DNA of 64,000 nucleotides from Cyanidioschyzon merolae (Eukaryota). The notes under the pieces were generated by a model, which made no database searches, was not told where the DNA came from, and was given only the letters and a program-made list of their open reading frames with translations. Location: the NCBI GenBank assembly GCA_000091205.1, contig AP006496.2. One strand, written 5' to 3'. A program made the position numbers and the translations under genes. Shown one piece after another: positions 5,180-60,500 of the stretch. Every line of letters begins with the position of its first letter. Position 1 is the first letter of the stretch.

Positions 5180-5607
5180 TATGATCCAGGAAAGCGTGTA
5201 TCATGCTTTACCGGACCTCTTTTTTTCCATGATCCATTCTTGGTGTCGGCGATAATCCAGGAAAGCGTGTATCATGCTTTACCGGACCTCTTTTTTTCCA
5301 TGATCCATTCTTGGTGTCGGCGATAATCCAGGAAAGCGTGTATCATGCTTTACCGGACCTCTTTTTTTCCATGATCCATTCTTGGTGTCGGCGATAATCC
5401 GGGAAAGCGTGTATCATGCTTTACCGGACCTCTTTTTTTCCATGATCCATTCTTGGTGTCGGCGATAATCCAGGAAAGCGTGTATCATGCTTTACCGGAC
5501 CTCTTTTTTTCCATGATCCATTCTTGGTGTCGGCGATAATCCGGGAAAGCGTGTATCATGCTTTACCGGACCTCTTTTTTTCCATGATCCATTCTTGGTG
5601 TCGGCGA
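5180..5607. repeat. 71-bp minisatellite, about 6 copies
   Basis: gataatccaggaaagcgtgtatcatgctttaccggacctctttttttccatgatccattcttggtgtcggc repeats, with a single A/G variant (ccagg or ccggg). Confidence 0.9.
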
Positions 5608-6279
5608 CAATCCGGTCATTTCGTATGCTCCACCGTACGCCGAGTCTGTTGTGAACGCCCGCAACAGCGCCTCTAGCGATACTCCAGACGCTGCATGGCG
5701 AACGAACGACTTTGCCGCTTGTCAGAGGGCTTCGGCTCATCGACTAGAACACCCCGTGGCTAGCGTGCACACCTGATTCATCGCATCGCTATCGATCCTG
5801 GGACGGAGAAATGTCATTGAAACTAAACATGGACTTGCCATCGCGAGACAGGGATCGCTTACCCCGTCAACTTGCCGTCTGTACGCACCGGAGTGGACGA
5901 GTTCCACTACGCTTCAATCCGCATTGCTTCTCGAGTCATGATGCGTCCATCGGATTGTCTGGATGCGAACCTACTGTGAGCGCTCGCTCACGCGCCCAGG
6001 CATTGCCACACGAAGGCGACAAATTGTTGTCGTAGCGCCATGCGGGTGTCACCGCTCGAATGCCTCCACTGATGCGCTGTCGCCGCAGCGGAGCGGCAGC
6101 CTGGCGGCACCAGTCGCTGATCAGCACCAAGTCAATGTCGTGGCTCGCGCGCTGCCAGGGCGCCCCAAGCAGTAGGTGCTCCACAGCTAGCGCCGAGCCC
6201 TGGTCGAATCGAACCCAACAACATAAAGTTTACACGGATAAAAATCCGAACTAGACCCGATGAAACTGTTACTCTACGA

Positions 6280-8285: not shown

Positions 8286-10705
8286 GCGCTATGCGGGTAC
8301 CTCTCTGTGGTGCAGCATTTCCAATGGCATGCCATTGGGTACTTTTTCGCGGTCAAAAGCAGAAGCGTTCAAAGTGCGATCACTTGGTGATATAAAAAGA
8401 CCAATAGAAAGGTATGGACATGGAAGACGGGCATCCTTGAGGGCCTGGTGCCGCCGGATTCCAGAAAAAAAAAACGAGAAAAAGAGTCCTCGTCTCGCTG
8501 CCCATCGATTGTAGAAGAGCACGTGTCGAAGAAGAAGAAGAAGAGCGGTGATAGGCGAGACAAGGTGTTTGCCTGACGGGACAATGACGAGACTATTATG
8601 GCACAATGAGTGCGCGTTCGAAAAATCATCGTACTGATGAGTTCAACCGGATGCAATAAACGCATCTAGTTCGAGAACCGAGAACGGAACACCGCCATGA
8701 ATATCAGACGCTGTGTAGCGCTGAAGTCTAGACCCAGGGAGCTGACACCAGCCAACTTTGTGGGGCAGCCTCTCAGGCTATAAGTGTTCAACGAGAAACT
8801 GAGACCGATAGCAGGCGGCCGGTCAAAAAAGATTGGCAGACGCCTGTGAATAGGTACATATTTACCCTCCATGGTCGTGAAACGATGTTCGTTTTGCTGA
8901 CGTGTATAGACATTACTACCGTTCCATAAATGCTACATTATATGTCCGATACAGGTATTCGGGCAAGCGTCTATCATTCCTCACCCTACCTCCAATTTTC
9001 ATGATCCATGCATCCTCATCGAGATACTAGTCGATTTCGAACGTTCCACAGTGCGTCGAGCCTGACCTGAACGTCCGCAGCAATGCTTGTAGCGCCAGTG
9101 CGAATGGAGCACGTTGAACAAAACGGCTTCGCCATACCACGGAAGGCATCGGCTCGAGGCACGATTCATTGGTCACAGAGTCGGGACGCATCATCATTCC
9201 GGAATCCTGCAAGCTGCGTAGACATACCCGCTGCTTGCGACTACGCGAAGCGATGTGCTACGTGACCACAGCGACCAGGGCAACGCCCGGATGCTGACCT
9301 CTCACATCTCGTCGCGGAAGCGAGTCTGTCGCGGACGAGGTGCTCGGGCTTCGCCACAGCACCCGGCACTGGAGCGAGCGTCACACACCAGCTTGGTAGA
9401 AGCGTCGGGGTCAGGGGACCGGACCTCATGTCTCAAAGGTAAACTTCCGAATGCACGGAAAGCTGCTAATTCTTACATCCCATCCCGTCGACAGGAATTA
9501 CCCAGTCAAATCACTGCTATTTCGTGATTCGTTTTCTTCCTTGTCCGTGGCAGCAGCTGTCCTATGGCTAGTTCCTCTCCACTTGGACACGTTGGCCAGC
9601 GGGTCCGCCCTAGCCTCGTTTCCGACGGGATCAAGCCCCTATTCCAGACACGAGCGCTCCTGCAGAACGGATGAAGCATGCACGGGTCTATGGAGAGCCC
9701 GCGGCCCTCGCCCTTGATTCCCTGCACATGATACGCGACAGGACGCTGCGCTTTGGCACTTGCAGGCCGAGTACCCCATCTCCGCCGCTGCACCCTATAC
9801 CAGTGTGCGGGGTCGTATCAGCGAGAAGCCAGTCGACGCTGCCTGCAGAGCGATCACGCTCTCATCCGGCAGAGGCGGGCTCTACAGGTTCGCTTGACTG
9901 CGAGCTCCCATTGACGCAAAACAAACGAGCCACCGATCCTGTCATATTCGGAAACGTCTACAGGCGTGCTGAGGAAGCTCGATCGTACAGTCACTCTCCA
10001 GCTGAGGATCAGGGCACCTGATGCGTCCGATGCTGCCTCGTCGCCGAACAAAGCACCCGCGCTCTCTTCCACGAAGTGGTTGTGCGTCTGGTTAGGATCC
10101 GTACTAACGCGTATCGCAAGCTGGCTGCATTTCAATGCCCGAATACCGTCGCCCTGCCAGTGTACTTTGCTGCGTACACCAGACGAGGAGGCGGTGCTCC
10201 GCAGCCAGCACCCGCCCCTCTCGACGGAATACATGTCGCTTGGCTCGGACATTCCAGTGCCTGAACGAGACCCGTTCAGCGCTGCGGTCGGCGCTGCACG
10301 CCATCAGTGTCTCCCCACACTTGTCTATGTTCAGACGGGAGCCACTCGCTGGCAATAGCCGAAGGCAGCGGACGTCCACCGTGGGGAGCTTCCACATGCG
10401 CTTTTCCGAGTCACGATCAGAGTACGGGTTCACCGCTCACGTTCGCAACGTTCACGCAACCTCATGTGAGGAATCAGCACGTTTCGAAACAGATGCATGG
10501 ATGAAGACCATGTTTACCGGCACTAAGGTCACGTAGATTCGCAGCAGTCACTGTATGGCACTGTATGAAGCAATGCTCTGAAGCATTGCCTATGTCGATG
10601 TGGCTCGTTTGTCGTCTCCGCGCGTCGCAGCCGGCATTTGGAAACCAGCGCTCAGATGCCACCTTGCCCGCGAGGGAACAAAATGCGTCGCTGCTTCACA
10701 TCGAG

Positions 10706-12529
10706 CTACCGCCACATCCATGTGTCGATGCCGGCGTCCAGTGGAGGTGCCCACTGGTCAAAGTCCATGGCGGGTACCATACTCGGCCAGTAGCCGGCGT
10801 GGTGGACAGATCCTCGTCGCGACCAGAGCGGCTCCGAGTCGGAATTCGTCGGACTCCATAACAAGCGCTCCGGCTGACGACGACTATACCCGCAGTCGTG
10901 AAGGAGGATGTCTTCCAGCTCCGAAGCCATCAGCGTTGGGCGCAGCGTGTACGACACGCTCGTAGCGTACTCGTACTCCAGCCAGTCGACCTCGGCGAAG
11001 AGGTGCCACGGGTCCGCGTCAAGCGATCCCGACAGCGACGCAGCCGGACGCGTTTCGCCAAGCGCTGTTGAGCCGTGAAACGCACCCAGACCGACCTCGT
11101 GAGCGCCACGCATGCGCCAAAGCGCGCCCACATGCGGCAGACACCGACAAACGTAACATGCTTCGGCCCCGAGAACGGATCCGTCTCGGATTCGCCGCAA
11201 GACGTCGGGAAGCGGCAGCTTCGGCTCGCCCAGTTGCTGTCGTGCCAGCTGGACGTGGGCGCTAGCCTCGAGAGCAGCCTCTTCGTGGGTAGCGAGCCGC
11301 GTACGTCTCACGTCCGTAAGACGTGCAAGGTCAAGAAAGCAATTAAACAGCACGACAGGTACGCCGACCGCTCGACAAGCATCCACAATGCGCAGCACGG
11401 ACCCCAGATGCCTCGACGCAACCGCATTTGTAATGACAACCACATCCGGCAGTGCTGCAAGCAAGTCGTCGCCGTAATCTCCGTCGAATGCCTGCGCGAC
11501 ATGGGTGCATCCTGCATCGGCTAAGAGCGCGTTTCGCACAGCAAATAGCGTCCGTAGTCGGCAACGTCGATCACGAGGCACCAGCATCCAGGGGCTGGTA
11601 CTCCCGGCCGCCACCGCTGCCTCTGGATGCGTATCCAACGCAGTAAGTCCAAGGAGGTTGCGTTCCGGGTCTGCAGCCGCGTCGGCAATACCAATCACAT
11701 CCAGAAAGGATGCATCGTCGGCGGTATGGCTCGCCTCCAGCACGTTGCGGGCCGAGTCGAACACAGCGCGCATGAGGCAACGTGCTATTTCCTCATTGGG
11801 ATCTATGTCTTCGTAATAGGTTAGCAACTTGGGCGCTGAGCCCCGAAGCGAGTCGGCATCACGTGTGCCGGGCGAGTCCGCTGCAACACCGTGACGAGCT
11901 TGTGTCCCTCGCCACCGCCGCAGGGGCATGAGCGCTCCACCCCCAAGCTGCCGAGCTGTGGCGTCCAGAGGCGCCACACAAACACACACCCGCGCTCCGC
12001 GTTGCTGCGTGAACACTTCCACATAGTCATGAAAGAGATCACGAGAGTAGCGACGCAGTTCGTTTGCCGGGACGGCATGGTACCACTTGTCTTTGGTGCG
12101 CCCCATGGGCAGCTCTATGGACCAGACCCCCCAGTCGGGGACCTTGCGCAAGACGTGCAGCGTCGCATACTGCGCCTGCAGGATAGAGAACTCCACGGTC
12201 TGGGGCAGGCACGGCGGCAGTGAACTGGTATCCGCGTACACTGTGCGTAGGGACTCCGTGAGCGCTTCAAAGTTGCATGTCGCATCTGGTACAGCAGACC
12301 ACGACGCGATGCGCTCAAGTCGCTGGCGCTGCGCTTTCGTTATCGCTGGTTCCGAGTTCACACCGACGAGCAGTGCGCGCTGTGTCCCTAGTCGTTTCCG
12401 CAAGCTTGAGCGGCAACCTCGCGACACCAAAGGCACAACGAAACAGCGCTGTGAGCGAGCGCTGCTGCTGGGAAAGCCTGCCACAAACGCGCTTTTTCGC
12501 TCACAAGCACTGCAGTGAAGCCTCCGCAT
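10706..12529 (-). CDS. Hypothetical protein, 607 aa, no confident domain assignment
   Basis: Long ORF with balanced composition. The central block DVVVITNAVASRHLGSVLRIVDACRAVGVPVVLFNCFLD looks like a folded domain, but I cannot name it. Confidence 0.45.
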   Translation of the reverse strand: MRRLHCSACERKSAFVAGFPSSSARSQRCFVVPLVSRGCRSSLRKRLGTQRALLVGVNSEPAITKAQRQRLERIASWSAVPDATCNFEALTESLRTVYADTSSLPPCLPQTVEFSILQAQYATLHVLRKVPDWGVWSIELPMGRTKDKWYHAVPANELRRYSRDLFHDYVEVFTQQRGARVCVCVAPLDATARQLGGGALMPLRRWRGTQARHGVAADSPGTRDADSLRGSAPKLLTYYEDIDPNEEIARCLMRAVFDSARNVLEASHTADDASFLDVIGIADAAADPERNLLGLTALDTHPEAAVAAGSTSPWMLVPRDRRCRLRTLFAVRNALLADAGCTHVAQAFDGDYGDDLLAALPDVVVITNAVASRHLGSVLRIVDACRAVGVPVVLFNCFLDLARLTDVRRTRLATHEEAALEASAHVQLARQQLGEPKLPLPDVLRRIRDGSVLGAEACYVCRCLPHVGALWRMRGAHEVGLGAFHGSTALGETRPAASLSGSLDADPWHLFAEVDWLEYEYATSVSYTLRPTLMASELEDILLHDCGYSRRQPERLLWSPTNSDSEPLWSRRGSVHHAGYWPSMVPAMDFDQWAPPLDAGIDTWMWR

Positions 12530-12770
12530 GGAACCTGTGCGGGTAGGTTACCACCAGCACCAGCACCAGCACCAGCACCACTACCAGAGACGCTGTGTGG
12601 CAGCGTGAGCGCTTTTCAGGTGTCGCCCCTCCCGCTACGTCACCTGTCGACGGAGCTGGTGGCGTTTGGGGCCCGCCTGCCGCAGTGCAGCGCTCGCGCA
12701 GGATTCTCGACGCATCGCGGCAGCATCAGGGCAGCGATATACCTCACGGAGCACTGAAAAACACACACAC

Positions 12771-12865
12771 ACACAAAAAAAGTAAGAAAAGAAAAATGCG
12801 CATAATCGGAGAACGCTTGCCTAGGTAAACGTTTTGTCAATGAAAAAAATCAGGGCATCGTTGAG
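12771..12865. repeat. Dispersed conserved element of about 95 bp, copy A, immediately 5' of the 93-bp array
   Basis: See copy B at 41195-41300. The two copies are about 85% identical over roughly 90 bp. Confidence 0.7.
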
Positions 12866-12876
12866 CCGTTGTTGAT

Positions 12877-13695
12877 GCACCAGATTCCCCGATTCTCACC
12901 CGAGACGCATGGAGTTGCACTTGGTATCGGCAATTCGGGAAGCAATGCTCTCAATGAGCCGGTGTTGGTGCACCAGATTCCCCGATTCTCACCCGAGACG
13001 CATGGAGTTGCACTTGGTATCGGCAATTCGGGAAGCAATGCTCTCAATGAGCCGGTGTTGGTGCACCAGATTCCCCGATTCTCACCCGAGACGCATGGAG
13101 TTGCACTTGGTATCGGCAATTCGGGAAGCAATGCTCTCAATGAGCCGGTGTTGGTGCACCAGATTCCCCGATTCTCACCCGAGACGCATGGAGTTGCACT
13201 TGGTATCGGCAATTCGGGAAGCAATGCTCTCAATGAGCCGGTGTTGGTGCACCAGATTCCCCGATTCTCACCCGAGACGAATGGAGTTGCACTTGGTATC
13301 GGCAATTCGGGAAGCAATGCTCTCAATGAGCCGGTGTTGGTGCACCAGATTCCCCGATTCTCACCCGAGACGCATGGAGTTGCACTTGGTATCGGCAATT
13401 CGGGAAGCAATGCTCTCAATGAGCCGGTGTTGGTGCACCAGATTCCCCGATTCTCACCCGAGACGAATGGAGTTGCACTTGGTATCGGCAATTCGGGAAG
13501 CAATGCTCTCAATGAGCCGGTGTTGGTGCACCAGATTCCCCGATTCTCACCCGAGACGCATGGAGTTGCACTTGGTATCGGCAATTCGGGAAGCAATGCT
13601 CTCAATGAGCCGGTGTTGGTGCACCAGATTCCCCGATTCTCACCCGAGACGAATGGAGTTGCACTTGGTATCGGCAATTCGGGAAGCAATGCTCT
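12877..13695. repeat. 93-bp tandem array, 8.8 near-perfect copies
   Basis: Unit gcaccagattccccgattctcacccgagacgcatggagttgcacttggtatcggcaattcgggaagcaatgctctcaatgagccggtgttggt starts at 12877, 12970, ... 13621. The only variation is an alternating C/A (gacgCatgg or gacgAatgg). All three + frames and one - frame are open, which produces the ORFs 12869..13819, 12909..13724 and 12850..13767. Confidence 0.95.
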
Positions 13696-14136
13696 CGCGT
13701 ATGACACGCTCCAGGTTCCACTAGGAACACACGTCATACGCGGCTTTCGGCATGATGTTTCGTTCACGAGGTTCTCCTGGTGCCTTCCCTACCTCGAGAA
13801 CGCTATCTGCGGCCTCTGAAGCGTCGCTGCGGACGTCGTAGGAAGAGGATACGGCTTTTTTTCAAACCTGTGCGGGCACCAGCACGAGAAACCTCTGGTC
13901 CTCAACGCGGAGACTGGTCAGACAACTGTTCGACGTCCTGGCGTCTGCATGGGGCGCAGAGGCCTCTGCCGCGAGTGCCGTCGGCACCCAAGTATACGAA
14001 GAACCCAGCTCCACGTATCGATCCTGTACCATAAACAAAATCGGCATGAGGGTTGCGCTTGCCGAGCGCTGCACGTCAGCGATAGGCCCGCAGTCGCCTG
14101 ATCCTGTCGGTGTATCGGCAAGCGAGGTTCTAGCAC

Positions 14137-15135: not shown

Positions 15136-15684
15136 TTAGCGACCGCCGGCCAAGTCACGTCGGCGCGATAGCGCCGTATCGCCACGGCGAACGCGAATGT
15201 TCAGAGCCTTGACCAGCCGGTCGAAACGCTCCAGATCCTGAGACTGCAGATACCGGAGCAAACGCCGCCGCCGTGAGTTCAGCAACTGAAGCCCTCGCGT
15301 CGAAGACAAGTCTTTCGGGTGCTCTTTCAGGTGCTCCGTGATAATGTTAACACGTTCTGTAAGCGCCGCAATTTGGTACTCCGGGGACCCCGTGTCCCGC
15401 TCGTGCACTCGGAACCGCGCGCTGGCCGCCCGCACCCGCTGGAGGTTCAGCCACGTCTTATTGCCGCCTCCTTCGGGAAGATCAGAACCATCCATGGGCA
15501 GCAGGCTCTCCGTAGTGCGCTCGGACTTGCCGAGGAAAAAGTCGAAAGTATCTTCTCCGGTCTGGAGACGCAACCCGGCCAGCGCACAGACTCGAGCACG
15601 CCGTGTTGCGCACTGCGGCGACGTCACACGCTTCGACCCCAACACAGAAAACGCACTGCACGTGCTCGGTAGTATGAACGCCAT
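15136..15684 (-). CDS. Bacterial-type ribosomal protein bS15, nuclear-encoded organellar form with an N-terminal presequence
   Basis: The C-terminal 90 aa (TGSPEYQIAALTERVNIITEHLKEHPKDLSSTRGLQLLNSRRRRLLRYLQSQDLERFDRLVKALNIRV) match the bS15 signature TGSxExQIAxLTxRIxxLTEHLKxHKKDxxSRRGLLxxVxxRRRLLxYL. About 85 aa of N-terminal extension (MAFILPSTCSAFSVLGSKR...) is consistent with a transit peptide. Confidence 0.8.
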   Translation of the reverse strand: MAFILPSTCSAFSVLGSKRVTSPQCATRRARVCALAGLRLQTGEDTFDFFLGKSERTTESLLPMDGSDLPEGGGNKTWLNLQRVRAASARFRVHERDTGSPEYQIAALTERVNIITEHLKEHPKDLSSTRGLQLLNSRRRRLLRYLQSQDLERFDRLVKALNIRVRRGDTALSRRRDLAGGR

Positions 15685-20276: not shown

Positions 20277-21311
20277 ATGTTGTACTGGGTTGGCGTCTTC
20301 CGGCCGTCAAGGTTTCTCGTCAGTGTCTGTGCCTTCATAGGACTTGTGGCAGCTATCCTGATCCATCTGGAAGTGCTCGCGTCTCCGCTGGAGGCAGTGA
20401 TCGTCGCTTTACTCCTCGGTTTCGGGGTGGTAACCTTCCGTGCGTTCTGGGATCACGTCACCGAGGATTGCTTCGAGCAAAACGGCCAAAATGAAAGCGT
20501 CGTCGAATTCATGTCGTTCTCGCATCTAGCGGTGTCCGTGGTGCTCAACGTCCTCTGCGTCGCGCTCGTCGCTGCCCGGGGCCGTGCCGACCACCACTGG
20601 GCCCAGGTTAGCACCATCGTATGCCTACTCTCAATGCTGTACATGGCCTGTGCGGGTGGTCACATCTATGACGCACTCGTGCATCATAACTATGAGCAAG
20701 AGAACGCAGCTGTCGAACTTGTCATCATCTACGACACGTGGTTCCCGTTAGCAATGAACCTGCTGCTTCTCGCTCGTTTGGCTGGCGCCCAGGCCTTTTT
20801 CTTGCAGCGAATCGTCTGGGAACCCTTCGCGTTCGCTGAAAGGGTGCTCGAATGGACTACACTTTTGACGCAAAGGCAGTTACAGTTTCAGCTGGGGCGT
20901 AATTTCTTCCTCCGGCTTCTGCAGCAATCCGCGCACGCATCCAGTCAACAGATCATGCGTGCGCTCGAAGTTGTCATGCGTGCTGCGCGCCAAGGCGACT
21001 TTCACCTCGCCCTCCATGTAGGGTGTATCGTTGCCGGGTTCCTGCTTACGTCCGTTTACATCGTGGCGGTGTTGCCGGTGCTTGCCCGCTGCCACGGCAA
21101 GTTCGCAGCAGCGTCCGCAGAGGAGGCACGGCTCGCTGGTGCTTTGAAGACGCCTGCTGGGGCGTTGACACCAGCCAAGGCGGCATCTACAGCGCGCACA
21201 CCAGCAACGACAACGACGGCGCGTAAGAGTCGTCCGCGAGTGCCGACTCCGATGACGCTGCGACGCAAGAACCTTCGTTCCCAGAGCGTGCGGCGAGGCC
21301 TCCAGTTCTAG
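20277..21311 (+). CDS. Predicted multipass membrane protein, about 6 hydrophobic helices, Ala/Thr/Arg-rich tail
   Basis: Hydrophobic segments include SVCAFIGLVAAILIHL, AVIVALLLGFGVVTF, LAVSVVLNVLCVALVAA, VCLLSMLYMACAGG, WFPLAMNLLLLARL and IVAGFLLTSVYIVAVLPVLA. No named family recognised. Confidence 0.4.
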   Translation: MLYWVGVFRPSRFLVSVCAFIGLVAAILIHLEVLASPLEAVIVALLLGFGVVTFRAFWDHVTEDCFEQNGQNESVVEFMSFSHLAVSVVLNVLCVALVAARGRADHHWAQVSTIVCLLSMLYMACAGGHIYDALVHHNYEQENAAVELVIIYDTWFPLAMNLLLLARLAGAQAFFLQRIVWEPFAFAERVLEWTTLLTQRQLQFQLGRNFFLRLLQQSAHASSQQIMRALEVVMRAARQGDFHLALHVGCIVAGFLLTSVYIVAVLPVLARCHGKFAAASAEEARLAGALKTPAGALTPAKAASTARTPATTTTARKSRPRVPTPMTLRRKNLRSQSVRRGLQF

Positions 21312-29829: not shown

Positions 29830-31494
29830 GCGGTTCGGTGTCTCGAACACGATGCCAACACATGGGCTTTTGCTTTGCGCTGGAGCTGGATGCCATTGCG
29901 CTATCGTGTGTAATAAACTGAATCGATAAACCTGTCTGGCGGAGCGAGCGCCTCAGTGTTTGCCAGGGTATGGCGCTTGGTCGAGTTCGCAGGCTTGACG
30001 ACCGTCGGTGAGTGAACCTTTGAGCATCACCGTCGTGCGATGCAGCGTGAGGAATACTTGAGGGTGCGGGCAAGGTTATGCTCCGGAATCCATAAACAAG
30101 TGCTGGGGAACGATATCGCTCTTGGAGCTTGCAGTGACATTTATATGGAGGCGCGTAGACCAGCCCAGACAGGAGTCTCGGGAGGCGATTCCCGCCCTGA
30201 ACCGCGACGATGCTCGAGTGTGTTCTGTTCGTGGATGTGCATCACGTCAGTAACGCACTCACTGACGCAGTTGGGGTGCGGTTCACGTATTGGAACAAGG
30301 ATTACAAAATCCGGTGTTTGGGTGTTGTTACCGGCCGGAAAAATAGCGAGAACAAAGCAGTTAAGCGATGATGTATGCGAAGACAGCATCATCGAACTTG
30401 GCATGACCAGGAATACATGCTTATTCGCTGCAAGCGAGGAATATCCATGATGGATGACAAGGGGCTTCAGCAGGCATCGCTCAGCGTTTTGTTTTGTTTG
30501 CCACAAGTCGTCCCTGCTACTCTTCAGCACTGACGTCACTAGTGCGGGATGCGACCTGTCGGTGAGCGTCGGTGCTGGAGCGTGCTCTTTCGCAGGCGTA
30601 GCTCGTCGTGAAACAGGGAGCTCAGGCGCTTATCCCGTGTCTCGTTTCGAGAATCTGCCGCTGTACTTGAGCAAAAGCCGGTGCACCTGGCATCTTCCGC
30701 GACACCCTGCCCAGCGACCCCGAGCAGCAGTGCTTGCGCACTACAGCTCTACAGCGGGAAACCGGTACTCGGCAGCTGCGTTTGCACGATATTTTAGAGA
30801 CCAGAGCGACAGCTTCTTCCACAAGACTGAGTGCACAGAGACGCGTACTTCCGTTCCTCCATTCCGACAGAGGGCGCTTTGAAGCGCCTCGCCGTGTACA
30901 AGCACCGGAAGCTCCGTTTCCTATGTGGATTGCCAGACGCACGGCAGCGACGCACTTCACGGACGTAGATGTAGATGGATACAGGCCTGTTTAGCGGGCA
31001 AAGTGTGAAAAAGACGCAATGTATGTCGGTTCATATAGACGCGTGCAGCGTCCGGGACTCCAAGGGATGTTCCTGCAGTGCAATGATTGCAAATAGCAGT
31101 CGACATTTACGATACGAATCAGTGGACAAGCGCAAGGCAAGCCGCCGAGTGCGCAGAGTCGTGACCTACCACACAGCGGTGGTGCGCTTACACAAACATA
31201 AACACTTGTCGAGGTTTACAAGTCCGCCCAAATAGACGCCCCTGGGCGCGTTCCACGTAGACGACGGGCGCGTCAGCCGCGCACCAGTACCGCAGGCGGA
31301 CCCAGGCGCCTCCAAAGTCACACATATGCGCTCGGGTGTGTAGCGTGTCAAGAGCGACGCAAGCTTTACGGAGAGAGTTGATGCAGTGCTCGCACACTGC
31401 AGGCGAGGCCGCGAGCGCCAACGAGCGCGACGCTCGGCGGCACCCACAGGACGCTGCACCCGCTCGGCGGCACCAGTTGTGAGCAAGCACCGCC

Positions 31495-34548
<3,054 letters not shown>

Positions 34549-35154
34549 GCGTTGTGCTCGCTGCAACCGAGTACGTAAAGACCTTTGCTTCTGCGTACAT
34601 TTCATATAAACTCTCAGTTCTATGCACAAACTTACCGCAATCTTCGCTTTTGTGTAAGCCCTGAAAACATAGATGCAGCGAGGGACATCGCATAGCGTCA
34701 TTGTTTTTTAACCTCCCCTTGGATGGACTCCAGTCGTGCGAACGCTCGCGCGGCCGCATCGCCCAGCGCCCTGAATAAAGCGCTCAGGTGGGTATCCTGT
34801 CCGAAACGTCTTGGTAGCCCTGCTAGCATCGCCGATGGCCGTACGTGGAGTATCCAGCGACCTTCCTGGAACCAAGCCGTCGAGCGCCATCGCAACGGCC
34901 TTGCGTAGCGTCTGTATATGTTGAATTGGAAACGTATACAAACCATAGCGGACGACAGCGTCTCAGTGATAGACGTCTGCACAGAAAGCATGTTCTGTAT
35001 GCAGTGTATCTCACCGTATGAAGTATCGGTTGCCGGGCAACTGCATGCCTCGACAGTTCGAGCGATCGTCTTCGGCACGCAGGGAAGGGACGGCATTCGC
35101 CGGGGACTCGGATGCTGGACGCAGGAAACAAATCGGGTTAAGCAGAACACCAGT

Positions 35155-35508
35155 TTACTCGCCTTTGGCTTTCTTCTTCGGGAGAAGCACTGCGTGGATA
35201 TTCGGCAACACGCCGCCAGACGCAATGGTCACGTCCGCCAGGAGCTTGTTCAGCTCCTCGTCGTTGCGGATCGCCAGCTGGATATGACGCGGGATGATGC
35301 GCGTCTTCTTGTTGTCGCGCGCAGCGTTGCCCGCCAGCTCGAGAACCTCGGCGGTCAGGTACTCCATGACTGCAGCGAGGTAGACGGGCGCGCCAGCGCC
35401 GATGCGCTCCGCGTACCCGCCGTCTCGCAGGTACCGGTGGACGCGCCCCACCGGAAACTGCAAACCTGCTTTGCTGGAGCGTGACTTTGCCTTGCCCTTG
35501 GGCGCCAT
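35155..35508 (-). CDS. H2A: Histone H2A (canonical, 117 aa, no SQ(E/D) H2A.X tail)
   Basis: The ORF reads [90 protein letters not shown]...KKKAKGE. The start was verified as CAT at 35506-35508. The ORF-track entry extends upstream. Confidence 0.95.
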
Positions 35509-37272
35509 GGTGCTGAAAGCTTCGAGAGAGAACGCGAGAGACCGACCGCGAGAGAAACAGCAGCCGCAGCGGTATACCCGTCGACGGCAGAGAAGTGAGA
35601 CGAGAGCAGGAGCGACACAGAGCGCTGTGTCACACGGTATCAGTCGCGAGTACGAGAACGCCAAGTGTTGCAGCGGTGGTTGCGAGCGGCACAGGCGCGC
35701 CGTACCGTGGTGGCGTCTGCTGCGGGAGCCAGGGGCACGCGTTTGTTCGCGATCCGCGGCGGATGCGCGCGATGCGCAGGTGTCGATCATGGATCGCCAT
35801 CGCGCTGGAATACCGGACTGGCACCTGGTACAGAGCGGGTGATCGAGCGATCTGGCGATCGGGCGATCTACGCGGCGACACCGCGCATCGCTGCCCTGCT
35901 TCAGTCTTCGTACATCGTGTACGATCTGGCGATCTGGCGAACGACCCTGCAGCGCTATGTTTTGCTCGTGCCAGCGAATCGCTGCGATGCGTCACTCCTC
36001 GTACATCGTCTTCGATCGTCCGATCGACTGTGCGATGCTGCGTGGCTGCTGGTGCCGGCAACTCGCCCCTGCGCCATTCATCATCCTTCGTCAGCGATCG
36101 GGAGACCTCCCAATCGATTCGGCCAGCTCTACTGTTTCCCGGTACTCGAGACTCGCCCCTGCGCCATTCGTGGTCCTTCGTCAGCGATCGGGCGACCTCG
36201 CAATGGATTCGGCCAGCTCTACTGTTTCCCGGTACTAGAGACTCGCTCCTTCACCATACATCATCCTTCGTCAGCGATCGGGCGACCTCGCAATCGATTC
36301 GGCCAGCTCTACTGTTTCCCGGTACTAGAGACTCGCCCCTGCGCCATTCGTGGTCCTTCGTCAGCGATCGGGCGACCTCGCAATCGATTCGGCCAGCTCT
36401 ACTGTTTCCCGGTACTAGAGACTCGCCCCTGCGCCATTCGTGGTCCTTCGTCAGCGATCGGGCGACCTCGCAATCGATTCTGTAGCTCTGCTGTTTTCCG
36501 GTACTAGAGACTCGCCCCTGCGCCATTCGTCGGCCTTCGTCAGCGATCGGGCGACCGCATGATTCAGTCTTAGGCATTGACGATGGCGCAGCACGGAGCG
36601 GGCAGGCGATAGATCTTGCTTCGCAGCCATTCTTGCAGATCACCCGGTGTCGCGCGGTCGCCAATGGCAGTGATCGGCACTGCTTTCGCACCCGATCCTC
36701 CGATGCCTCGTGAGCACTCGGGCACGCGATACCGTGCCCTCATCCGGCGCAGGTCCGCGAGTCCAGCGATCTGAAGGGCTGTCGGCAAGCGGACACTCCC
36801 GCCGGGGACCACGAGCTGATTCTTGAACGCGCGCAGGTCCGCGAGTCTCTCGATCTGCTGACAAGCGCGCTTGCGATCACGCGATCGCTGTGCTACATTC
36901 CGTGCGCACGGATCGCGCCGCTGCGCGTCCGCACCGCGCGCCAGAGATGTGCGCCGGCAGCGCGAGCACCGCCGATCGCGGCGGCTCAGATCGCGCGCGC
37001 CAGCCGATCGCGATCCGCCCTTGCCGAACGTGCGTACGCGTGCCATCCGCAGCGCCGGATGCGCAGGTGCCTCTGGGCGCTTGGCAGGCAGCGCGCCCCC
37101 GCTCTTCCGCCTTGGCGCTGTGTTACACGGTACACGCGGGTCTGCCTCGACAAGTGCCTGGCCTGTGTGCGTCTTTGTGTCCCTGCCCGCGTGTGTTTGC
37201 GCGTGCCCAGCTGTTGTTGCTCTGTAACCGTGAGCGCTATCGCTCGAGTGTGTCTGACTGCGAACCCGAGAC
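35509..37272. promoter_or_regulatory. Bidirectional H2A/H2B intergenic promoter region (left copy), containing a 90-bp x6 array
   Basis: H2A and H2B are divergent and 1.76 kb apart. Each 90-bp unit carries TTTCCCGG, a 7/8 match to the E2F consensus TTTCCCGC. Confidence 0.45.
36061..36570. repeat. 90-bp tandem array, 6 copies, between H2A and H2B (left)
   Basis: Unit starts at 36061, 36151, 36241, 36331, 36421 and 36509. Unit sequence: actcgcccctgcgccattcgtggtccttcgtcagcgatcgggcgacctcgcaatcgattcggccagctctactgtttcccggtactagag. Confidence 0.9.
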
Positions 37273-37629
37273 ATGGCTATGAAAGGGAAGACTGTTGCGA
37301 AGAAGGTGGCGAAGGCGCCCGCTAGTATCGACAAGAAGAAGCGCAAGCGCCTCGAGACGTACAGCATCTACATCTACAAGGTTCTGAAGCAGGTGCACCC
37401 GGACACGGGCATCAGCTCGAAGGCGATGTCTATTATGAACTCTTTTGTGAACGACCTGTTCGAGCGGATTGCGTCGGAGGCGAGCAAGCTTGCGCAGTAC
37501 AATAAGACGAAGACGCTGACGTCGCGGGAGATCCAGACTGCAGTGCGCCTGCTGCTGCCGGGCGAGCTTGCGAAGCACGCCGTCTCCGAGGGCACCAAGG
37601 CTGTCACCAAATACACCTCAAGCCAGTAA
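37273..37629 (+). CDS. H2B: Histone H2B (118 aa)
   Basis: The ORF contains ...[97 protein letters not shown]. Confidence 0.95.
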
Positions 37630-37689
37630 AACGTTTACGTCGCCTGTGCATGTCTCGACTGCTGGGTGCGCTCCTGGCGGGCCGGCTGC

Positions 37690-38065
37690 CCGTGCCGGTC
37701 CGAGTGCCGGTATCCGCGTCGCTTCCAGCATACACGCTTCTTTGCTGCCCGTACCGGTCCGAGTACTGGTATCCGCGTCGCTTCCAGCATACACGCTTCT
37801 TTGCTGCCCGCGCCGGTCCGAGTACCGGTATCCGCGTCGCTTCCAGCATACACGCTTCTTTGCTGCCCGTACCAGTCCGAGTACCGGTATCCGCGTCGCT
37901 TCCAGCATACACGCTTCTTTGCTGCCCGTACCAGTCCGAGTACCGGTATCCGCGTCGCTTCCAGCGTCCATGGTTCTTTGCTGCAGGTTCCGGTCCGAGT
38001 ACCGGTATCCGCGTCGCTTCCAGCATCCATGCTTCTTTGCTGCCCGTGCCGGTCCGAGTCCCGGT
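37690..38065. repeat. 59-61-bp minisatellite, about 6 copies, downstream of H2B (left)
   Basis: The motif ccggtccgagtaccggtatccgcgtcgcttccagcatacacgcttctttgctgcccgta recurs at 37711, 37769, 37828, 37887, 37947 and 38006. Confidence 0.85.
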
Positions 38066-38466
38066 ACCTATCAGAGGGTGCTGCTGATGGTGGCTGCACA
38101 GGGGCAGCGTCAGCTCACAGTTCAAGCCGCCCACTTGCAGTGCATAGCCCACTGTCGATGCCGGTGCCGCGCTCGAGGAGATACCTCCACACGCCCTTTG
38201 CGCTTTTTTGTTCCAGACACTGCAAGGTCCATGCACGCGACGGCGGCTGTCCTGCGCACGAGCTCGACATGTCGTAGCGACCTCTACTGGATGCATCGCG
38301 GATACCCGCTCGCACGACCAGTGGAAGCATCAGTGACTGGGGCGGGCGCCGCACGGCCCGTCCAACGCGTCTTCGCTGCTTCCATACACCCATCCCGTGC
38401 TCTGTGACCGCAACTTGGGTATTTCAGCGGGCGCTGGCGGTGCATGAACAGCGTTCCTTGGACGGG

Positions 38467-39099: not shown

Positions 39100-41194
39100 T
39101 CAACCAAAATATACACACCCAGCTTTACGGAAGGTGAACCTCCCCTGCTGGGGCTCAGTTTCGGCCTCGCCCAGCGTAGCCTAGCCCAGCGCAGCGACTC
39201 CTCCGAAAAGCGCGTCCCAGAGGTACTGTGACAGTCAAGAGCGCTGCTGCCGGTGCCGTCCTCGTGCAGGGCGAAAGCGGCTGCGCGACACACGCATGCC
39301 CGATCGACAGGGAACGCTGAACTACCCGCTTTGTTCCTACTTTTCGATCTGTATTTCGAGGGTTTCTGTAGGCATATAGCCTGGACATTCCAACTGGGGC
39401 AACACGAGCTTACGGATGGATACCTAGTTTGATGAATTTTTGTCGTGTTTCCGGAAGGCTCTTTCGATGGCCCACTCATGGAACTCGTAGCGTTCCTTGA
39501 GTGAGGATGCTTCGTGACGCTCTGGAGCAGGAGTTCGCAATCGAACCGATATCGATATCCAGTGCATGCGTACAGGCCTCTGTGGTTGCTCTTTGCCCGG
39601 GTATATTAAATTTAAAAGGCACACTCTTGAAGTTCTCGGTCGTTCCGTTGGAACGAGAATCATAGACCCAGCAATTCGCGCCTTTGGATTGGCGCGGATG
39701 AATTCCCGACGACGCACAAGCTCCTCACAAGCTCATGTCGAGCGTACATTGAATTTTTTAGGTCTATAATCCATTGCGCTCGAGACGCAAATCGCTCTTT
39801 CGTCGTCGCTACCTCCGATACGACATTCGAGAGCAGCATGGTATCTCTCAAAGGAGCTGGTGCCGGAGGCTCCCGTCACTTCTATTCGCATAAAGAACTG
39901 CATTGGACTCGGAGTCGAGTCATCGAAGCGACCGTTTCAAGGAGGGAATGCACCACCGTTTTCCACGGAGGGAGCGTAGACGGATCGAAAGCTTTCGACA
40001 GCATCTCCAGAATGAGTTTTCCCCGCGGTGTTTCCTTCATCGCATACAACATCGCACGCTGGAAATCCTCTAGCTAATAGCGCACCCTGCGGTTGCGCAT
40101 GCAAAAGACAGCAAACTCGCAGAACGATCCCCAGAAGAATCTCGGAATCGATTCACACGGCACCGGGTGCGGAAATCGAGAAGCGCATCGAGTGGTGCGC
40201 TCTGCACGGATCGAGGGCATGTAGCAGGCCACGAAGCAAGCGTTCACCCACTACGAAGCAGCGCTCGGCAGCGGATGAGGAGGAGGTCTGGTGCTGGTGG
40301 TGCTGGTGGTGCCCATACCGAACCGTCTGAACGAATTTACTTGTCGCCGATACGGCATCCGCACCGAGGCCTTATAAAACCTATATGCAAACGGGAAGCG
40401 ATGCGTCGATCGCGACTCGTACATGCGCACGAAACTCGTCGACATGAGCCAGAGGCGGCAAAATCAGGTCCTAAACGCCACCGCCAGAATCACTCGAACG
40501 CTGGCAGCAGTCCTGGAGAAACAGGATAGACTGGCGCATTTCATTCCAGATATAGGAGAGAGGAGAAGGATCCAGTCGCAGAAAAATCCCGCACAGGCTG
40601 ATGCGCATGACAATCGAAAGAGACCCAAACTCGAAAAAGTATATCCGGGTTGTTTCATTGGATCCGTTCCATTCTAGTCTGGACTGCGTTATGCACAAGC
40701 ACTGCTCAGTCGAACCAGGGATTCTCGAACGCGCGATTTCATTCTCGACAAGATGGGTATCGACTACGTCTCCAATTCGCAGACGTGCGTTCCACTGCTT
40801 ACTGACCAGACTTTTCCGAAACGACTCGTGATAACATCCCAGTCTACAGGTGTCGTGTCTGTCGAGTACTCTGCACTGGCTCCAGACGCGGCATTGCGAA
40901 TTCATTCTCACGGATAAAACTTCTATACAAGTCAGCCTTCCCCGAATGTGCGCTTGATCGCAGCGCGCACTGCAAGCAGCCGCCTCGAGCCGACGCCCCC
41001 CGTGCGGTACGGCGACGCCGTTCTGTCTCCGTGCAGCGACCGCACCGGCGCTATAGGCGCCATTGCGGATGCTCTCGACAGGTGCCAGGCACACACGATA
41101 GGACGTATGAAACGACCAGAATATCCGAGAAGAAGTATAGGTAATGTAACTTGGAGGTAGCGGGTTTGGTGGATATTTCACCGCACACAGGAAA

Positions 41195-41300
41195 AAACAC
41201 GCAAAAAAGGTGAGAAGAGAAAAATGCGCATAATCGGCGAACGCTGGCCTATGGAAACGTTTTGTCTATGGAAAAAAATGCAAAGCAGCCGCCGTTGCGC
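41195..41300. repeat. Dispersed conserved element of about 95 bp, copy B (copy A at 12771-12865)
   Basis: agaaaaatgcgcataatcgg(c/a)gaacgct(g/t)gccta(t/g)g(g/t)aaacgttttgtc(t/a)atg(g)aaaaaaat...gccgttg is shared between the two loci, and both copies are preceded by an A-rich tract. Confidence 0.7.
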
Positions 41301-49698: not shown

Positions 49699-49890
49699 GG
49701 GGGCCGCCCAGCACGCGGCGCGCCCGACTGTTGCGGACTTGGAGAACTTTTCTCCATGCAAAGTTCAGGTGAACTGCGCGAGCCTGTGAAAGGCTCTCTA
49801 CCGGAAGCAGGACGGTAGCGGATGTACTGGGGATTATTTGCCGCACAGTGTAAGTGGTCTTTACGTACTCGGTTGCAGCGAGCACAACGC

Positions 49891-50223
<333 letters not shown>

Positions 50224-51920
50224 TCACAAGCAAACAAACACGCAGAAGAAGAGCAAACACAGGCTCAACCGTAGACGTGCGCGCGCGTAAACGAGAACGC
50301 AAACGCAAGCACACGCGCGAAGAGAATCGTAAACGAGAACGCACGCACAGACGCAAGCACGCGATGCGCACGGCGGCGGTACACGAACGTCACAGACGAA
50401 ATGCTGCGGGTAGCGCGCACGCACACACACAGAGACACACGCTCACAAGCAGCTCGCACACAGAGAGAGCGGGAGAGACGGGTTCAGACACAGGCCGGGG
50501 ATGCACGCAAACTCGGATGCGCGCCTCTGGCCGGTGGTTGATCGCTGCGAGTACCTGGGGACTCTATGCGGGGCGGAGAGCGCCAAGGCTTGCCGGAGGT
50601 GACGCCTGTGTGCGACCGGCGCCGGGGCCCTGCTGCAGCGCCGGCAGCGCGCTTGTTCGCGTTGAGCGCTGCGCTGGCGGTGCGTGCGGCGGGTGTTCCG
50701 GGTGATGGTGTGCGTTGCGTGCCGCGAGCCGGTACGCGCTGCTTGGTGCGTGTGTGATCGGTTTCGAACACGGAGCGCGAGGCTGTGATCGTGGGACCGG
50801 CGGGTGGCGCGATCTGGCGCCGGCTGGTGCGCGGATCGTGCGCGCCAGTTGGCGCGCGCGCGCGTCATCGGTGCGGCGCATTGAAACGGAGCGCGCGATC
50901 CGATGAGCACGTCGGCGCACGGGCGCCCTGTGCGCGCATTGCTCGATCGCGGCGCTGGGCGGCGGCTGGTGTATCTGGCGCCGCCGTGGCGCTCGTGGTC
51001 TCGTGCGCGCAGCTGTCCGGAGCGGTGCCCGGCAGCGGTGTATCTGGCGCCGCCGTGGCGCTCGTGGTCTCGTGCGCGCAGCTGTCCGGAGCGGTGCCCG
51101 GCAGCGGTGGATGCTGGCGCATGGCGCTCGTCAGGGCGGTGATGCCGCAGGCCCAGGAGCCAACCGGAGCTCGCCGCCCGACGACTAGGTAACGCGGGAA
51201 GCAGGACTGGCGCCGGGCACCTCTGCGTCGGTGGATCGGGCATGACGCGTTCAGCACGGCTGATCGGAAGCTTGCGGTGGTGGTATCGGTGATATGGAGC
51301 ATAGATCAGTGGCGCTTGGGGTCGTTTCAGTGGTGCATTCGGGAATGCAGCATAGACCGGTCGGAATCGGAGGGCGACACTCGTCGAGCGGCGTTGCACC
51401 ATATAGAGCAGTGCTGGCTGGGGCACGCACATTGTCCAGTCTGTCATCACACTGCTCGCATCAGTGCTGAGCGGAACCTGTGAATCGCCCATTCGTTTAC
51501 CCACCATGCTGCTGAGCAGACTCCATTCCACGAGGCGTCAGAGTGTCCATTTACGAAGCACATGTACCGCTCGCGGCCCGCCGGTCATCAAGCCGGATAT
51601 GTGGGAGGCGGCGCTGCCGATCGGATCCCGCCAATCTCGCATTCCGCATCGCTGATGCTATGACACCTGTTGTCGTAAAGCCCATGCTGCACCCTTGAAA
51701 GCTTGCGGTAAGCTGCCCGTCGTTGGAGCCGTGATATCGCGTGCGCTCTCTCCGCTGCAAGCTCGCAGAGAAGGACTGGAATCTTCCGCGAGACGCATTT
51801 TCGCCGGAACCCAGCCCCGCGATGTCGTCTCCTCAGCGGGCGCTCCCGGACTTTGGGAGACTCACAGGTATGTCCTCAGCAGTGATGCACGCGAGACCGA
51901 TGTATCGCCATGCACCATCC

Positions 51921-52530
51921 GGGTGATGAGACTACTGTCAGCAGTAGCTGTACTTTCTGATCTGCACTGAGCGTATCTTCGGCTCATCGCTCCAAATGCA
52001 TGCCAGACCGATCTATCGATATACACTAGTCGGGTGATGAGACTATCGTCGGCGCCAGCTGTACTTTCTGATCTGCACTGAGCGTATCTTCGGCTCATCG
52101 CTCCAAATGCATGCTAGACCGATCTATCGATATACACTAGTCGGGTGATGAGACTACTGTCAGCAGTAGCTGTACTTTCTGATCTGCACTGAGCGTATCT
52201 TCGGCTCATCGCTCCAAATGCATGCCAGACCGATCTATCGATATACACTAGTCGGGTGATGAGACTACTGTCAACAGTAGCTGTACTTTCTGATCTGCAC
52301 TGAGCGTATCTTCGGCTCATCGCTCCAAATGCATGCCAGACCGATCTATCGATACACACTAGTCGGGTGATGAGACTACTGTCAACAGTAGCTGTACTTT
52401 CTGATCTGCACTGTGCGTATCTTCGGCTCATCGCTCCAAATGCATGCCAGACCGATCTATCGATATACACTAGTCGGGTGATGAGCCTATCGTCGGCGCC
52501 AGCTGAACTTTCTGATCTGCACCGGGCGTC
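51921..52530. repeat. 111-bp minisatellite, 5.5 copies, in the H3-H4 intergenic region (right)
   Basis: gggtgatgag starts recur at 51921, 52032, 52143, 52254, 52365 and 52476, a period of exactly 111 bp. Confidence 0.9.
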
Positions 52531-52712
52531 TCCTGGTCTCGTCGCCGGAGACGGCGCGCGATCCACTACCGAGGCATGCGAGATCGCTGAAGCACCAAGA
52601 TCGCCCGCATCGCAAGATCGCTCACGCGTGCACCCCGCTGGTGGCGCGCACGCGTCTCGCCGATCGCACTCACCACCCGCACGCGGGCGATCGGCACCAT
52701 CTCCTCCGTTGA

Positions 52713-53285
<573 letters not shown>

Positions 53286-54774
53286 GGCGGTGCTTGCTCA
53301 CAACTGGTGCCGCCGAGCGGGTGCAGCGTCCTGTGGGTGCCGACGAGCGTCGCGCTCGTTGGCGCTCGCGGCCTCGCCTGCAGTGTGCGAGCACTGCATC
53401 AACTCTCTCCGTAAAGCTTGCGTCGCTCTTGACACGCTACACACCCGAGCGCATATGTGTGACTTTGGAGGCGCCTGGGTCCGCCTGCGGTACTGGTGCG
53501 CGGCTGACGCGCCCGTCGTCTACGTGGAACGCGCCCAGGGGCGTCTATTTGGGCGGACTTGTAAACCTCGACAAGTGTTTATGTTTGTGTAAGCGCACCA
53601 CCGCTGTGTGGTAGGTCACGACTCTGCGCACTCGGCGGCTTGCCTTGCGCTTGTCCACTGATTCGTATCGTAAATGTCGACTGCTATTTGCAATCATTGC
53701 ACTGCAGGAACATCCCTTGGAGTCCCGGACGCTGCACGCGTCTATATGAACCGACATACATTGCGTCTTTTTCACACTTTGCCCGCTAAACAGGCCTGTA
53801 TCCATCTACATCTACGTCCGTGAAGTGCGTCGCTGCCGTGCGTCTGGCAATCCACATAGGAAACGGAGCTTCCGGTGCTTGTACACGGCGAGGCGCTTCA
53901 AAGCGCCCTCTGTCGGAATGGAGGAACGGAAGTACGCGTCTCTGTGCACTCAGTCTTGTGGAAGAGGCTGTCGCTCTGGTCTCTAAAATATCGTGCAAAC
54001 GCAGCTGCCGAGTACCGGTTTCCCGCTGTAGAGCTGTAGTGCGCAAGCACTGCTGCTCGGGGTCGCTGGGCAGGGTGTCGCGGAAGATGCCAGGTGCACC
54101 GGCTTTTGTTCAAGTACAGCGGCAGATTCTCGGAACGAGACACGGGATAAGCGCCTGAGCTCCCTGTTTCACGACGAGCTACGTCTGCGAAACAGCACGC
54201 TCCGGCACCGACGCTCACCGACAGGTCCCATCCCGCACTAGTGACGTCAGCGCTGAATAGTAGCAGGGACATTTTATAGAAATGACAAGCTGCCATACCC
54301 TTTAAAGAGGCAGCGTGCGAAGCAGAATGTCACGTCGTCTCTAGGTTCAAGCGCATCCGCTGCCGCCAGTCTTGATTTGTACTCGGAACGCTGTTCATAC
54401 ACCGCCAGCGCCCGCTGAAATACCCAAGTTGCGGTCACAGAGCACGGGATGGGTGTATGGAAGCAGCGAAGAAGCGTTGGACGGGCCGTGCAGCGCCCGC
54501 CCCCCATCACTGATGCTTCCACTGGTCGTGCGAGCGGGTATCCGCGATGCATCCAGTAGAGGTCGCTACGACATTTCGCGCTCGTGCGCGGGGCAGCCGC
54601 CGTGGCGTGCATGGACCTTGCAGTGTCTGGAACAAAAAAGCGCAAAGGGCGTGTGGAGGTATCTCCTCGAGCGCGGCACCGGCATCGACAGTGGGCTATG
54701 CACTGCAAGTGGGCGGCTTGAACTGTGAGCTGACGCTGCCCCTGTGCAGCCACCATCAGCAGCACCCTCTGATA

Positions 54775-54985
54775 GGTACCGGGCCTCGGACTGGTACGGG
54801 CAGCAGAGAAGAGTGGACGCTGCAAGCGACGCGGATACCGGTACTCGAACCGGAACCTGCAGCAAAGAACCATGGATGCTGGAAGCGACGCGGATACCGG
54901 TACTCGGACCGGCACGGGCAGCAAAGAACCATGGACGCTGGAAGCGACGCGGATACCGGTACTCGGACTGGTACGGGCAGCCGGC
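54775..54985. repeat. 61-bp minisatellite, about 3.5 copies, downstream of H2B (right); paralogous to the 6-copy array at 37690-38065
   Basis: gcgacgcggataccggtactcgg recurs at 54826, 54887 and 54948. Confidence 0.8.
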
Positions 54986-55036
54986 CCGCCAGGAGCGCAC
55001 CCAGCAGTCGAGACATGCACAGGCGACGTAAACGTT

Positions 55037-55393
55037 TTACTGGCTTGAGGTGTATTTGGTGACAGCCTTGGTGCCCTCGGAGACGGCGTGCTTCGCAAGC
55101 TCGCCCGGCAGCAGCAGGCGCACTGCAGTCTGGATCTCCCGCGACGTCAGCGTCTTCGTCTTATTGTACTGCGCAAGCTTGCTCGCCTCCGACGCAATCC
55201 GCTCGAACAGGTCGTTCACAAAAGAGTTCATAATAGACATCGCCTTCGAGCTGATGCCCGTGTCCGGGTGCACCTGCTTCAGAACCTTGTAGATGTAGAT
55301 GCTGTACGTCTCGAGGCGCTTGCGCTTCTTCTTGTCGATACTAGCGGGCGCCTTCGCCACCTTCTTCGCAACAGTCTTCCCTTTCATAGCCAT
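55037..55393 (-). CDS. H2B: Histone H2B (second copy)
   Basis: The protein is identical to the H2B at 37273..37629. Confidence 0.95.
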
Positions 55394-56109
55394 GTCTCGG
55401 GTTCGCAGTCAGACACACTCGAGCGATAGCGCTCACGGTTACAGAGCAACAACAGCTGGGCACGCGCAAACACACGCGGGCAGGGACACAAAGACGCACA
55501 CAGGCCAGGCACTTGTCGAGGCAGACCCGCGTGTACCGTGTAACACAGCGCCAAGGCGGAAGAGCGGGGGCGCGCTGCCTGCCAAGCGCCCAGAGGCACC
55601 TGCGCATCCGGCGCTGCGGATGGCACGCGTACGCACGTTCGGCAAGGGCGGATCGCGATCGGCTGGCGCGCGCGATCTGAGCCGCCGCGATCGGCGGTGC
55701 TCGCGCTGCCGGCGCACATCTCTGGCGCGCGGTGCGGACGCGCAGCGGCGCGATCCGTGCGCACGGAATGTAGCACAGCGATCGCGTGATCGCAAGCGCG
55801 CTTGTCAGCAGATCGAGAGACTCGCGGACCTGCGCGCGTTCAAGAATCAGCTCGTGGTCCCCGGCGGGAGTGTCCGCTTGCCGACAGCCCTTCAGATCGC
55901 TGGACTCGCGGACCTGCGCCGGATGAGGGCACGGTATCGCGTGCCCGAGTGCTCACGAGGCATCGGAGGATCGGGTGCGAAAGCAGTGCCGATCACTGCC
56001 ATTGGCGACCGCGCGACACCGGGTGATCTGCAAGAATGGCTGCGAAGCAAGATCTATCGCCTGCCCGCTCCGTGCTGCGCCATCGTCAATGCCTAAGACT
56101 GAATCATGC

Positions 56110-57429: not shown

Positions 57430-57661
57430 ACTGGTGTTCTGCTTAACCCGATTTGTTTCCTGCGTCCAGCGTCCGAGTCCCTGGTCACCGCCGTGCATGT
57501 TCGTCGTCGCGTTTCCCGCTCCGCATCTATCGCACGGTTTGAATCGCTCCAAGTATACGGCCTCAGATTGATACCAAAGAGGATTCGACGGTGTGCGTCT
57601 CCGCCAGCCCTGCGACACGAATGCATCGCATCGAGCAGGGCTCCCAGTTCCAGACGCGCTG

Positions 57662-59994: not shown

Positions 59995-60500
<506 letters not shown>

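Follow-up and report, generated by a model that had tools for sequence, protein, structure and literature searches.

Minisatellites, or VNTR loci, are tandem arrays of units of roughly 10-100 bp in eukaryotic intergenic DNA. The locus described here resembles them in its head-to-tail 93-bp units, its restriction to a single place, the very high identity among units and a copy number that varies among strains, and the internal order of its variants points to the multi-unit duplication steps known from such loci. Nothing essential differs, and the kind of feature is one already known, a plain minisatellite.

Two other described systems are relevant for comparison. The first is the coding gene with tandem repeats kept in frame inside it, as in some cell-surface genes of yeast; our array resembles such genes in having a period that is a multiple of three, a frame that is kept and a length that varies among strains, whereas its open reading frame (ORF) lacks a conserved start, homologs, a conserved coding signal in its flank and a syntenic counterpart. 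The second system, 5'-truncated insertions of LINEs, concerns the DNA adjoining the array, which shares with such insertions homology to the 3' end of copies encoding reverse transcriptase (RT), variable 5' truncation, a short A-rich end and target-site duplications, here of 9-19 nt. The genome of Cyanidioschyzon merolae is reported to contain 26 class I elements, all of them closest to non-LTR retrotransposons (PMC1955436).

We analyzed a 64,000-nucleotide stretch of C. merolae DNA (contig AP006496.2), hereafter the window, together with metagenome contigs carrying the same locus and the corresponding region of two related species. The feature under study is very probably an ordinary, young, strain-variable, locus-specific noncoding minisatellite in the spacer between the gene for the chloroplast ribosomal protein S15 precursor and a gene for a 607-aa hypothetical protein. 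Coordinates of all features are given in Table 1.

Table 1. Features of the array locus and of related positions in the window.
Feature	Coordinates	Strand	Evidence or remark
607-aa hypothetical gene	10706-12529	minus	start at 12529
Target-site duplication of 9 nt, upstream copy, ATCAGGGCA	12725-12733	+	
Non-LTR retrotransposon 3' tail, truncated at its 5' end (~115 nt) and with a short A-run as its last bases	12734-12848	+	nhmmer 12738-12848, model positions 185-289 of 291, E = 3e-25
Target-site duplication of 9 nt, downstream copy, ATCAGGGCA	12849-12857	+	array starts 4 nt later
Reverse ORF, 305 aa, noncoding-like codon usage	12850-13767	-	codon score -0.166; probable artefact
93-bp minisatellite, 9.0 units	12862-13696	.	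Tandem Repeats Finder, repeat family D1, unit comparison
Longest ORF, 314 aa from ATG (316 aa from TTG at 12869), 31-aa repeat and 40 unique residues	12875-13819	+	unit scores 0.114 in codon usage; probable artefact
Second forward ORF, 271 aa, noncoding-like codon usage	12909-13724	+	codon score -0.107; probable artefact
Higher-order part of the array, units 4-9, three 186-bp dimers	13141-13698	.	variant order; 4-unit allele in L001
Chloroplast ribosomal protein S15 precursor gene	15136-15684	minus	identical to BAM81259.1 (Cyanidioschyzon merolae strain 10D)
CYME_CMN160C	20277-21311		identical to BAM81261.1 (C. merolae 10D)
Second LINE tail, 295 nt	40984-41278	+	E = 3.5e-99, model positions 1-291

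Results

Genomic setting and anatomy of the array

The array lies on chromosome 14 of C. merolae or of a very close strain, in a spacer of 2.6 kb bounded by the 3' end of the S15 precursor gene and the 5' end of the 607-aa hypothetical gene. It is on the upstream side of the latter, 333 bp from its ATG. No Pfam domain was detected in the 607-aa protein, homologs of which were found in Cyanidiophyceae only (Cyanidiococcus F1559_002916, 56% identity, and a 355-aa metagenome protein, 59%). A (CACCAG)n microsatellite at 12552-12587, 23 nt upstream of the same ATG, counts 4.8 copies in the window, compared with 6.8 in three of the metagenome contigs (L001-L003).

A preliminary description of this DNA had reported a near-identical array of nine 93-bp units, and such an array is indeed present: Tandem Repeats Finder (TRF) recovered 9.0 copies with 99% matches (score 1635), and the repeat finder placed the units head to tail at a constant spacing of 93 nt. 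The start given there, 12771, includes the adjoining dispersed element; the array proper begins at 12862. Unit-by-unit comparison showed that units 2-4, 6 and 8 are identical to each other, while units 5, 7 and 9 have A, not C, at unit position 47. Unit 1 carries two private substitutions, and unit 9 ends in GC in place of AA at its junction with the right flank. The C/A variant, described earlier as alternating, is the sole difference among units 2-9 apart from the end of unit 9; the alternation itself is absent from the first units, the order along the nine being C C C C A C A C A. Since units 4-9 read (C,A)x3, which corresponds to three 186-bp dimers, this order indicates that the latest expansions probably went in two-unit steps.

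Copy number in other assemblies

Contigs of the same locus were retrieved from hot-spring metagenomes using the S15 protein and the 607-aa protein, and their flanks are nearly identical to those in the window; the contigs obtained with the 607-aa protein are assemblies of DNA. Among the assemblies that span the array, the window has nine units, L001 (the same contig as L082) has four, in the order C C C A, and L002 and L003 have exactly one each; the numbers for the metagenome contigs derive from short-read assemblies, in which arrays can be collapsed, and the four-unit count may be too low. Because the SNPs flanking the array differ between L002 and L003, the two are distinct haplotypes with one unit. 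We infer that the one-unit alleles are real: contig names of the type "k141_..." suggest read support for every 141-mer, and one 141-mer takes in the whole 93-bp unit with both flanks. Assemblers typically break contigs at multi-copy tandem repeats, and seven further contigs (L004, L005, L006, L045, L109, L133 and L137) stop within the array while including one or more junctions between its units.

With alleles of 1, 1, 4 and 9 units and seven contigs that break inside it, the array behaves as a copy-number-variable locus, the polymorphism being derived from metagenome assemblies and not from typed isolates. The very recent expansion proposed earlier from the homogeneity of the units is in line with this variation, which fits recent expansion as well as contraction. 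Tandem repeats are also a classic source of misassembly and the metagenome assemblies disagree on the count, so one might suspect that the array was created during assembly. That has next to no probability in view of the internal unit-to-unit junctions in at least eight independent contigs and of the array's own internal pattern of variants, with distinct first and last units.

The adjoining element is a truncated LINE tail

A conserved element common to the array locus and the region upstream of a cofilin-like ORF had been noted previously, and we recovered it by BLAST: 12769-12849 (81 nt) is 88% identical to 41197-41277 (E = 2e-22), and the match is sharply bounded. The dispersed element is longer than these 81 nt, however, extending over ~12734-12848 at the array and over 40984-41278 at the cofilin locus, where 210 nt separate its end from the downstream cofilin-like ATG (41489). 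When the 18-mer core of the element was scanned in the metagenome contigs, at least 120 stretches were obtained; among the matches listed, ~106 belong to one family at 42-53 or more distinct insertion sites, a number that exceeds the published count of 26 class I elements (PMC1955436).

Alignment of the family copies showed that their 3' ends are all alike (...GTCAATGAAAAAAA), with unique DNA beyond them, and that homology reaches a variable distance upstream, coverage falling steadily toward the 5' end as expected for graded 5' truncation. Two long copies, L060 and L030, have more than 2.1 kb in common that ends in the element, and their same-strand ORFs match RVT_1 above the Pfam cut-off (E = 1.4e-18 and 6.5e-11). 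A word of at least 8 nt was common to both flanks in 22 of 53 insertions among the matches listed, as compared with 2.5% in mismatched-flank controls. The RT-encoding long copies, the graded 5' truncation and the target-site duplications identify the dispersed element as the 5'-truncated 3' tail of a non-LTR retrotransposon (LINE), in keeping with the published class I elements of this genome, all nearest to that type (PMC1955436). The earlier estimate of a 12-bp gap between element and array is close to the 12-13 nt that we found, and the gap is explained by the target-site duplication, which takes up nine of these bases. At the cofilin locus the LINE tail is likewise flanked by a target-site duplication, TGCAA(A)GCAGCCGCC, at 40971-40984 and 41279-41293.

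An alternative identity of the element, as a promoter module or small-RNA gene, was considered on account of its palindromes (ATGCGCAT and AAACGTTT) and dropped given the RT-encoding long copies, the 5' truncation and the target-site duplications; a search of Rfam with the LINE-tail element gave a chance match only. A derivation of the array from the element, with which it shares CACCAGATTCCC, was also rejected: BLAST similarity is confined to the 81 nt, and the 93-bp unit has no match to any of the LINE copies.

Several additional observations were made on this family. Independent insertions in L102, L019, L066, L112, L015 and at 40984-41278 in the window have a common 5' end (CTCGAGCCGACGCC...) ~295 nt from the tail; target-site duplications directly abut it, and other family copies continue upstream of it into the RT ORF. 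It could define a non-autonomous subfamily of SINE-like type, or else truncation could be favoured at that point. The window carries five fragments of the LINE tail detected with the HMM. Two of these, 8981-9158 and 58822-58963 (model positions 1-178 and 64-204), are without the 3' tail; simple 5' truncation is insufficient for them, and later deletion or rearrangement is likely. Another, 5581-5739 (minus strand, model positions 3-161), has its end directly overlapped by a 71-bp x 6.1 array (5184-5613, 98% matches). At L025 (635-1187), L048 (1-376), L069 and L094 (2810-3367), the LINE 3' tail forms tandem arrays of its own, with units of 150 bp in up to 3.7 copies and of 116 bp in 4.9 copies.

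Contact between LINE fragments and arrays raises the question of whether the retrotransposon insertion caused the 93-bp array, the first duplication having been made during repair of the target-site break. The start of the array 4 nt past the target-site duplication, the second LINE fragment (5581-5739) next to the 71-bp array and the four metagenome loci with an amplified tail would all suit such an origin. Of the five LINE fragments in the window, two are in contact with an array, which is not significant: under random placement, two or more are so in 14-28% of trials, and for this association the metagenome loci are biased against arrays. Moreover, the one-unit alleles already contain the LINE fragment, and the LINE copy is ~10% diverged from another copy of the family whereas the array units are ~99% identical, so that insertion and array expansion differ in age. 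We regard an origin of the array in the insertion as unlikely and take the adjacency to be coincidental, a causal link retaining a slight probability.

Reading frames across the array

Three overlapping ORFs (316, 271 and 305 aa) cover the array, in agreement with the 270-316 aa reported before. They exist because the unit is a multiple of three in length and free of stops in three of the six frames, two forward and one reverse. The preliminary description gave all forward frames as open and also spoke of four stop-free frames; in the third forward frame, however, each unit contains a TGA. At least three open frames are found for 66% of random 93-mers from the window once these are tandemised, and for 19% of shuffles of the unit. 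Three open frames are unremarkable for a tandemised 93-mer of window DNA.

As described previously, the + frame reads as a 31-aa repeat, PVLVHQIPRFSPETHGVALGIGNSGSNALNE, that continues into 40 unique residues. The ORF at 12875-13819 could be taken for a real young gene whose product would consist of nine repeats of 31 aa and a 40-residue tail and would vary in length among strains, and several observations are of the kind that such a gene would produce. Using a codon-usage log-odds score trained on 12 long ORFs of the window, we obtained 0.114 for the PVLVHQ... frame of the unit, to be compared with 0.147 ± 0.138 (mean ± sd) for in-frame gene windows, and the + ORF is the only one in the spacer with gene-like codon usage; the second forward open frame (-0.107) and the reverse open frame (-0.166) are noncoding-like. 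The period, a multiple of three, lets every allele keep the frame. In the window, L002 and L109 the ATG at 12875 stands 18 nt past the downstream target-site duplication and 26 nt past the LINE tail. Finally, metagenome gene callers sometimes call the + frame, as they do the reverse ORF (a 150-aa call in L001).

Other results speak against a gene. Only 31 codons of the array are independent, and a score of 0.114 is reached by 4.4% of 31-codon intergenic windows and by 8.4% of stop-free intergenic windows, which makes the gene-like codon score a weak hint; the 40-residue unique tail is noncoding-like (-0.053). The sole in-frame ATG is the one at 12875, the frame being closed by a TGA at 12842, and it is replaced by GTG in five of eight assemblies (L001, L003, L045, L133 and L137). 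In the one-unit alleles the + ORF is 66 aa long.

With the longest ORF as query, an index-free phmmer search of 1.84 billion representative proteins yielded as homolog one 97-aa metagenome fragment of the same ORF only, the other matches being four unrelated repeat proteins with 25-41% identity over short repeated stretches. Fragments of both the + and the reverse ORF have been called in metagenome contigs, and one of them (P0024) is in the representative library. Word-indexed searches with these two ORFs returned nothing; they missed the called fragments of both and are not counted as negatives. This type of protein search appears to fail for highly repetitive queries. Neither the array ORFs nor several ORFs in their neighbourhood had an exact counterpart on record. 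Pfam matches of the array ORFs (e.g. Bcr-Abl_Oligo, E = 4e-32) were rejected: they cover 10-28 residues, belong to unrelated families and include no single stretch that passes. Their low whole-protein E-values arise because the scores sum nine identical weak matches.

Cyanidiococcus yangmingshanensis and a second relative have the same gene order around the locus (WD40, DUF6790, ABC1, S15, 602-aa gene, PLATZ, CN_hydrolase). Neither similar DNA nor a similar ORF, whatever the frame, occurs in their spacers between S15 and the 602-aa gene (tblastn E > 0.01), and the LINE tail is absent from these spacers as well; the NCBI annotation of C. yangmingshanensis places no gene in this spacer. At the level of RNA, the array has no Rfam match at the gathering score or at E <= 1, a tRNA scan found none, and DNA fold z-scores of -0.04 to -0.54 indicate a stability that is not unusual.

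On this evidence a real young gene at 12875-13819 is very unlikely. A related view, that the haplotypes with ATG at 12875 and an expanded array have a gene in the process of being born, with a 314-aa ORF for a predicted de novo repeat protein absent from the sister species, seems to us scarcely probable. The preliminary description called the ORFs probable artefacts while leaving room for a genuine repeat protein, and the lack of homologs, the empty syntenic position in Cyanidiococcus and the polymorphic start codon support that judgment. Most likely, the array is noncoding and its three long ORFs are artefacts of a stop-free unit.

The array among other tandem repeats of the window

The 93-mer and the unique tail of the ORF match the S15 locus only in a search of 142 loci plus the window (~0.9 Mb of Cyanidioschyzon contigs, including full-length retrotransposon copies). 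The expectation, stated beforehand, that a plain minisatellite would show itself by occurrence of the unit at many noncoding loci does not hold here: across the ~0.9 Mb searched the unit is confined to one locus, which is normal for a minisatellite.

By TRF, 16 arrays in the window have periods of 50 bp or more. They make up a common class, in which the 93-bp array stands out as the largest and the most homogeneous. Other members also differ between assemblies: the 71-bp array has 6.1 copies in the window vs 3.1 and 2.1 in other assemblies, and a 97-bp array 2.9 copies vs 1.9 elsewhere. For a genome regarded as "simple", a density of 16 arrays in 64 kb, with periods of 51-111 bp and mostly in spacers, is very high. 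Several of these minisatellites yield long spurious ORFs as well, for example at 35595-36507 and 37568-38407.

The window further contains a large inverted duplication (30510-38457 vs 49856-57494), composed of several blocks of 0.5-2.1 kb with 99% identity. Arrays differ between its arms, with 2.5 vs 5.8 copies of a 107/111-bp unit, 6.5 vs 3.5 copies of a 59-bp unit and 5.5 vs 4.5 copies of a 90-bp unit. In addition to this duplication there are repeats of 300-500 bp with 100% identity, direct as well as inverted, at 31462-31961, 52819-53118 and 59999-60498.

The abundance of such arrays bears on a further explanation, namely that the 93-bp array regulates the 607-aa gene in cis, as a module of multiplied binding sites, a spacer or an insulator through which copy number would tune expression. 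Its place 333 bp upstream of the start of that gene and its strain-variable copy number are what one would expect of such a module. Nonetheless, alleles with one unit occur on two haplotypes, the syntenic spacer of the relatives has nothing similar, and 16 comparable arrays are scattered through the spacers of the window, so a regulatory role of this kind appears quite unlikely.

Discussion

The locus is best explained as a locus-specific noncoding minisatellite, and features of its junctions suggest how it may have arisen. The single-copy form of the unit is 91 nt, whereas the internal junctions carry an extra AA that is present in neither flank. As a first step, a 91-nt single-copy stretch may have been duplicated head to tail with a 2-nt AA filler, which would have set the 93-bp period. 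The array could then have grown and shrunk by replication slippage or unequal sister-chromatid exchange, and in the strain represented by the window the last steps would have been duplications of a two-unit C-A dimer (186 bp). The near-identity of the units is accounted for by the youth of the expansion. The ancestral allele may have had one unit or many, since a contraction between the first and last units would regenerate the exact one-unit form. The LINE tail probably represents an older and unrelated event, inserted by target-primed reverse transcription.

There is also a practical side to this locus. It is a warning for genome annotation: stop-free repeats give ORFs of 270-316 aa and grossly inflated Pfam whole-protein E-values. 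Short dead LINE tails, for their part, are more numerous in this genome than the published count of 26 class I elements (PMC1955436).

Taken alone, the 93-bp array matters little, being one of many young minisatellites in a genome that is usually described as exceptionally simple. Together with its 71-bp and 97-bp neighbours, however, the locus may provide strain-typing markers for hot-spring populations of Cyanidioschyzon.
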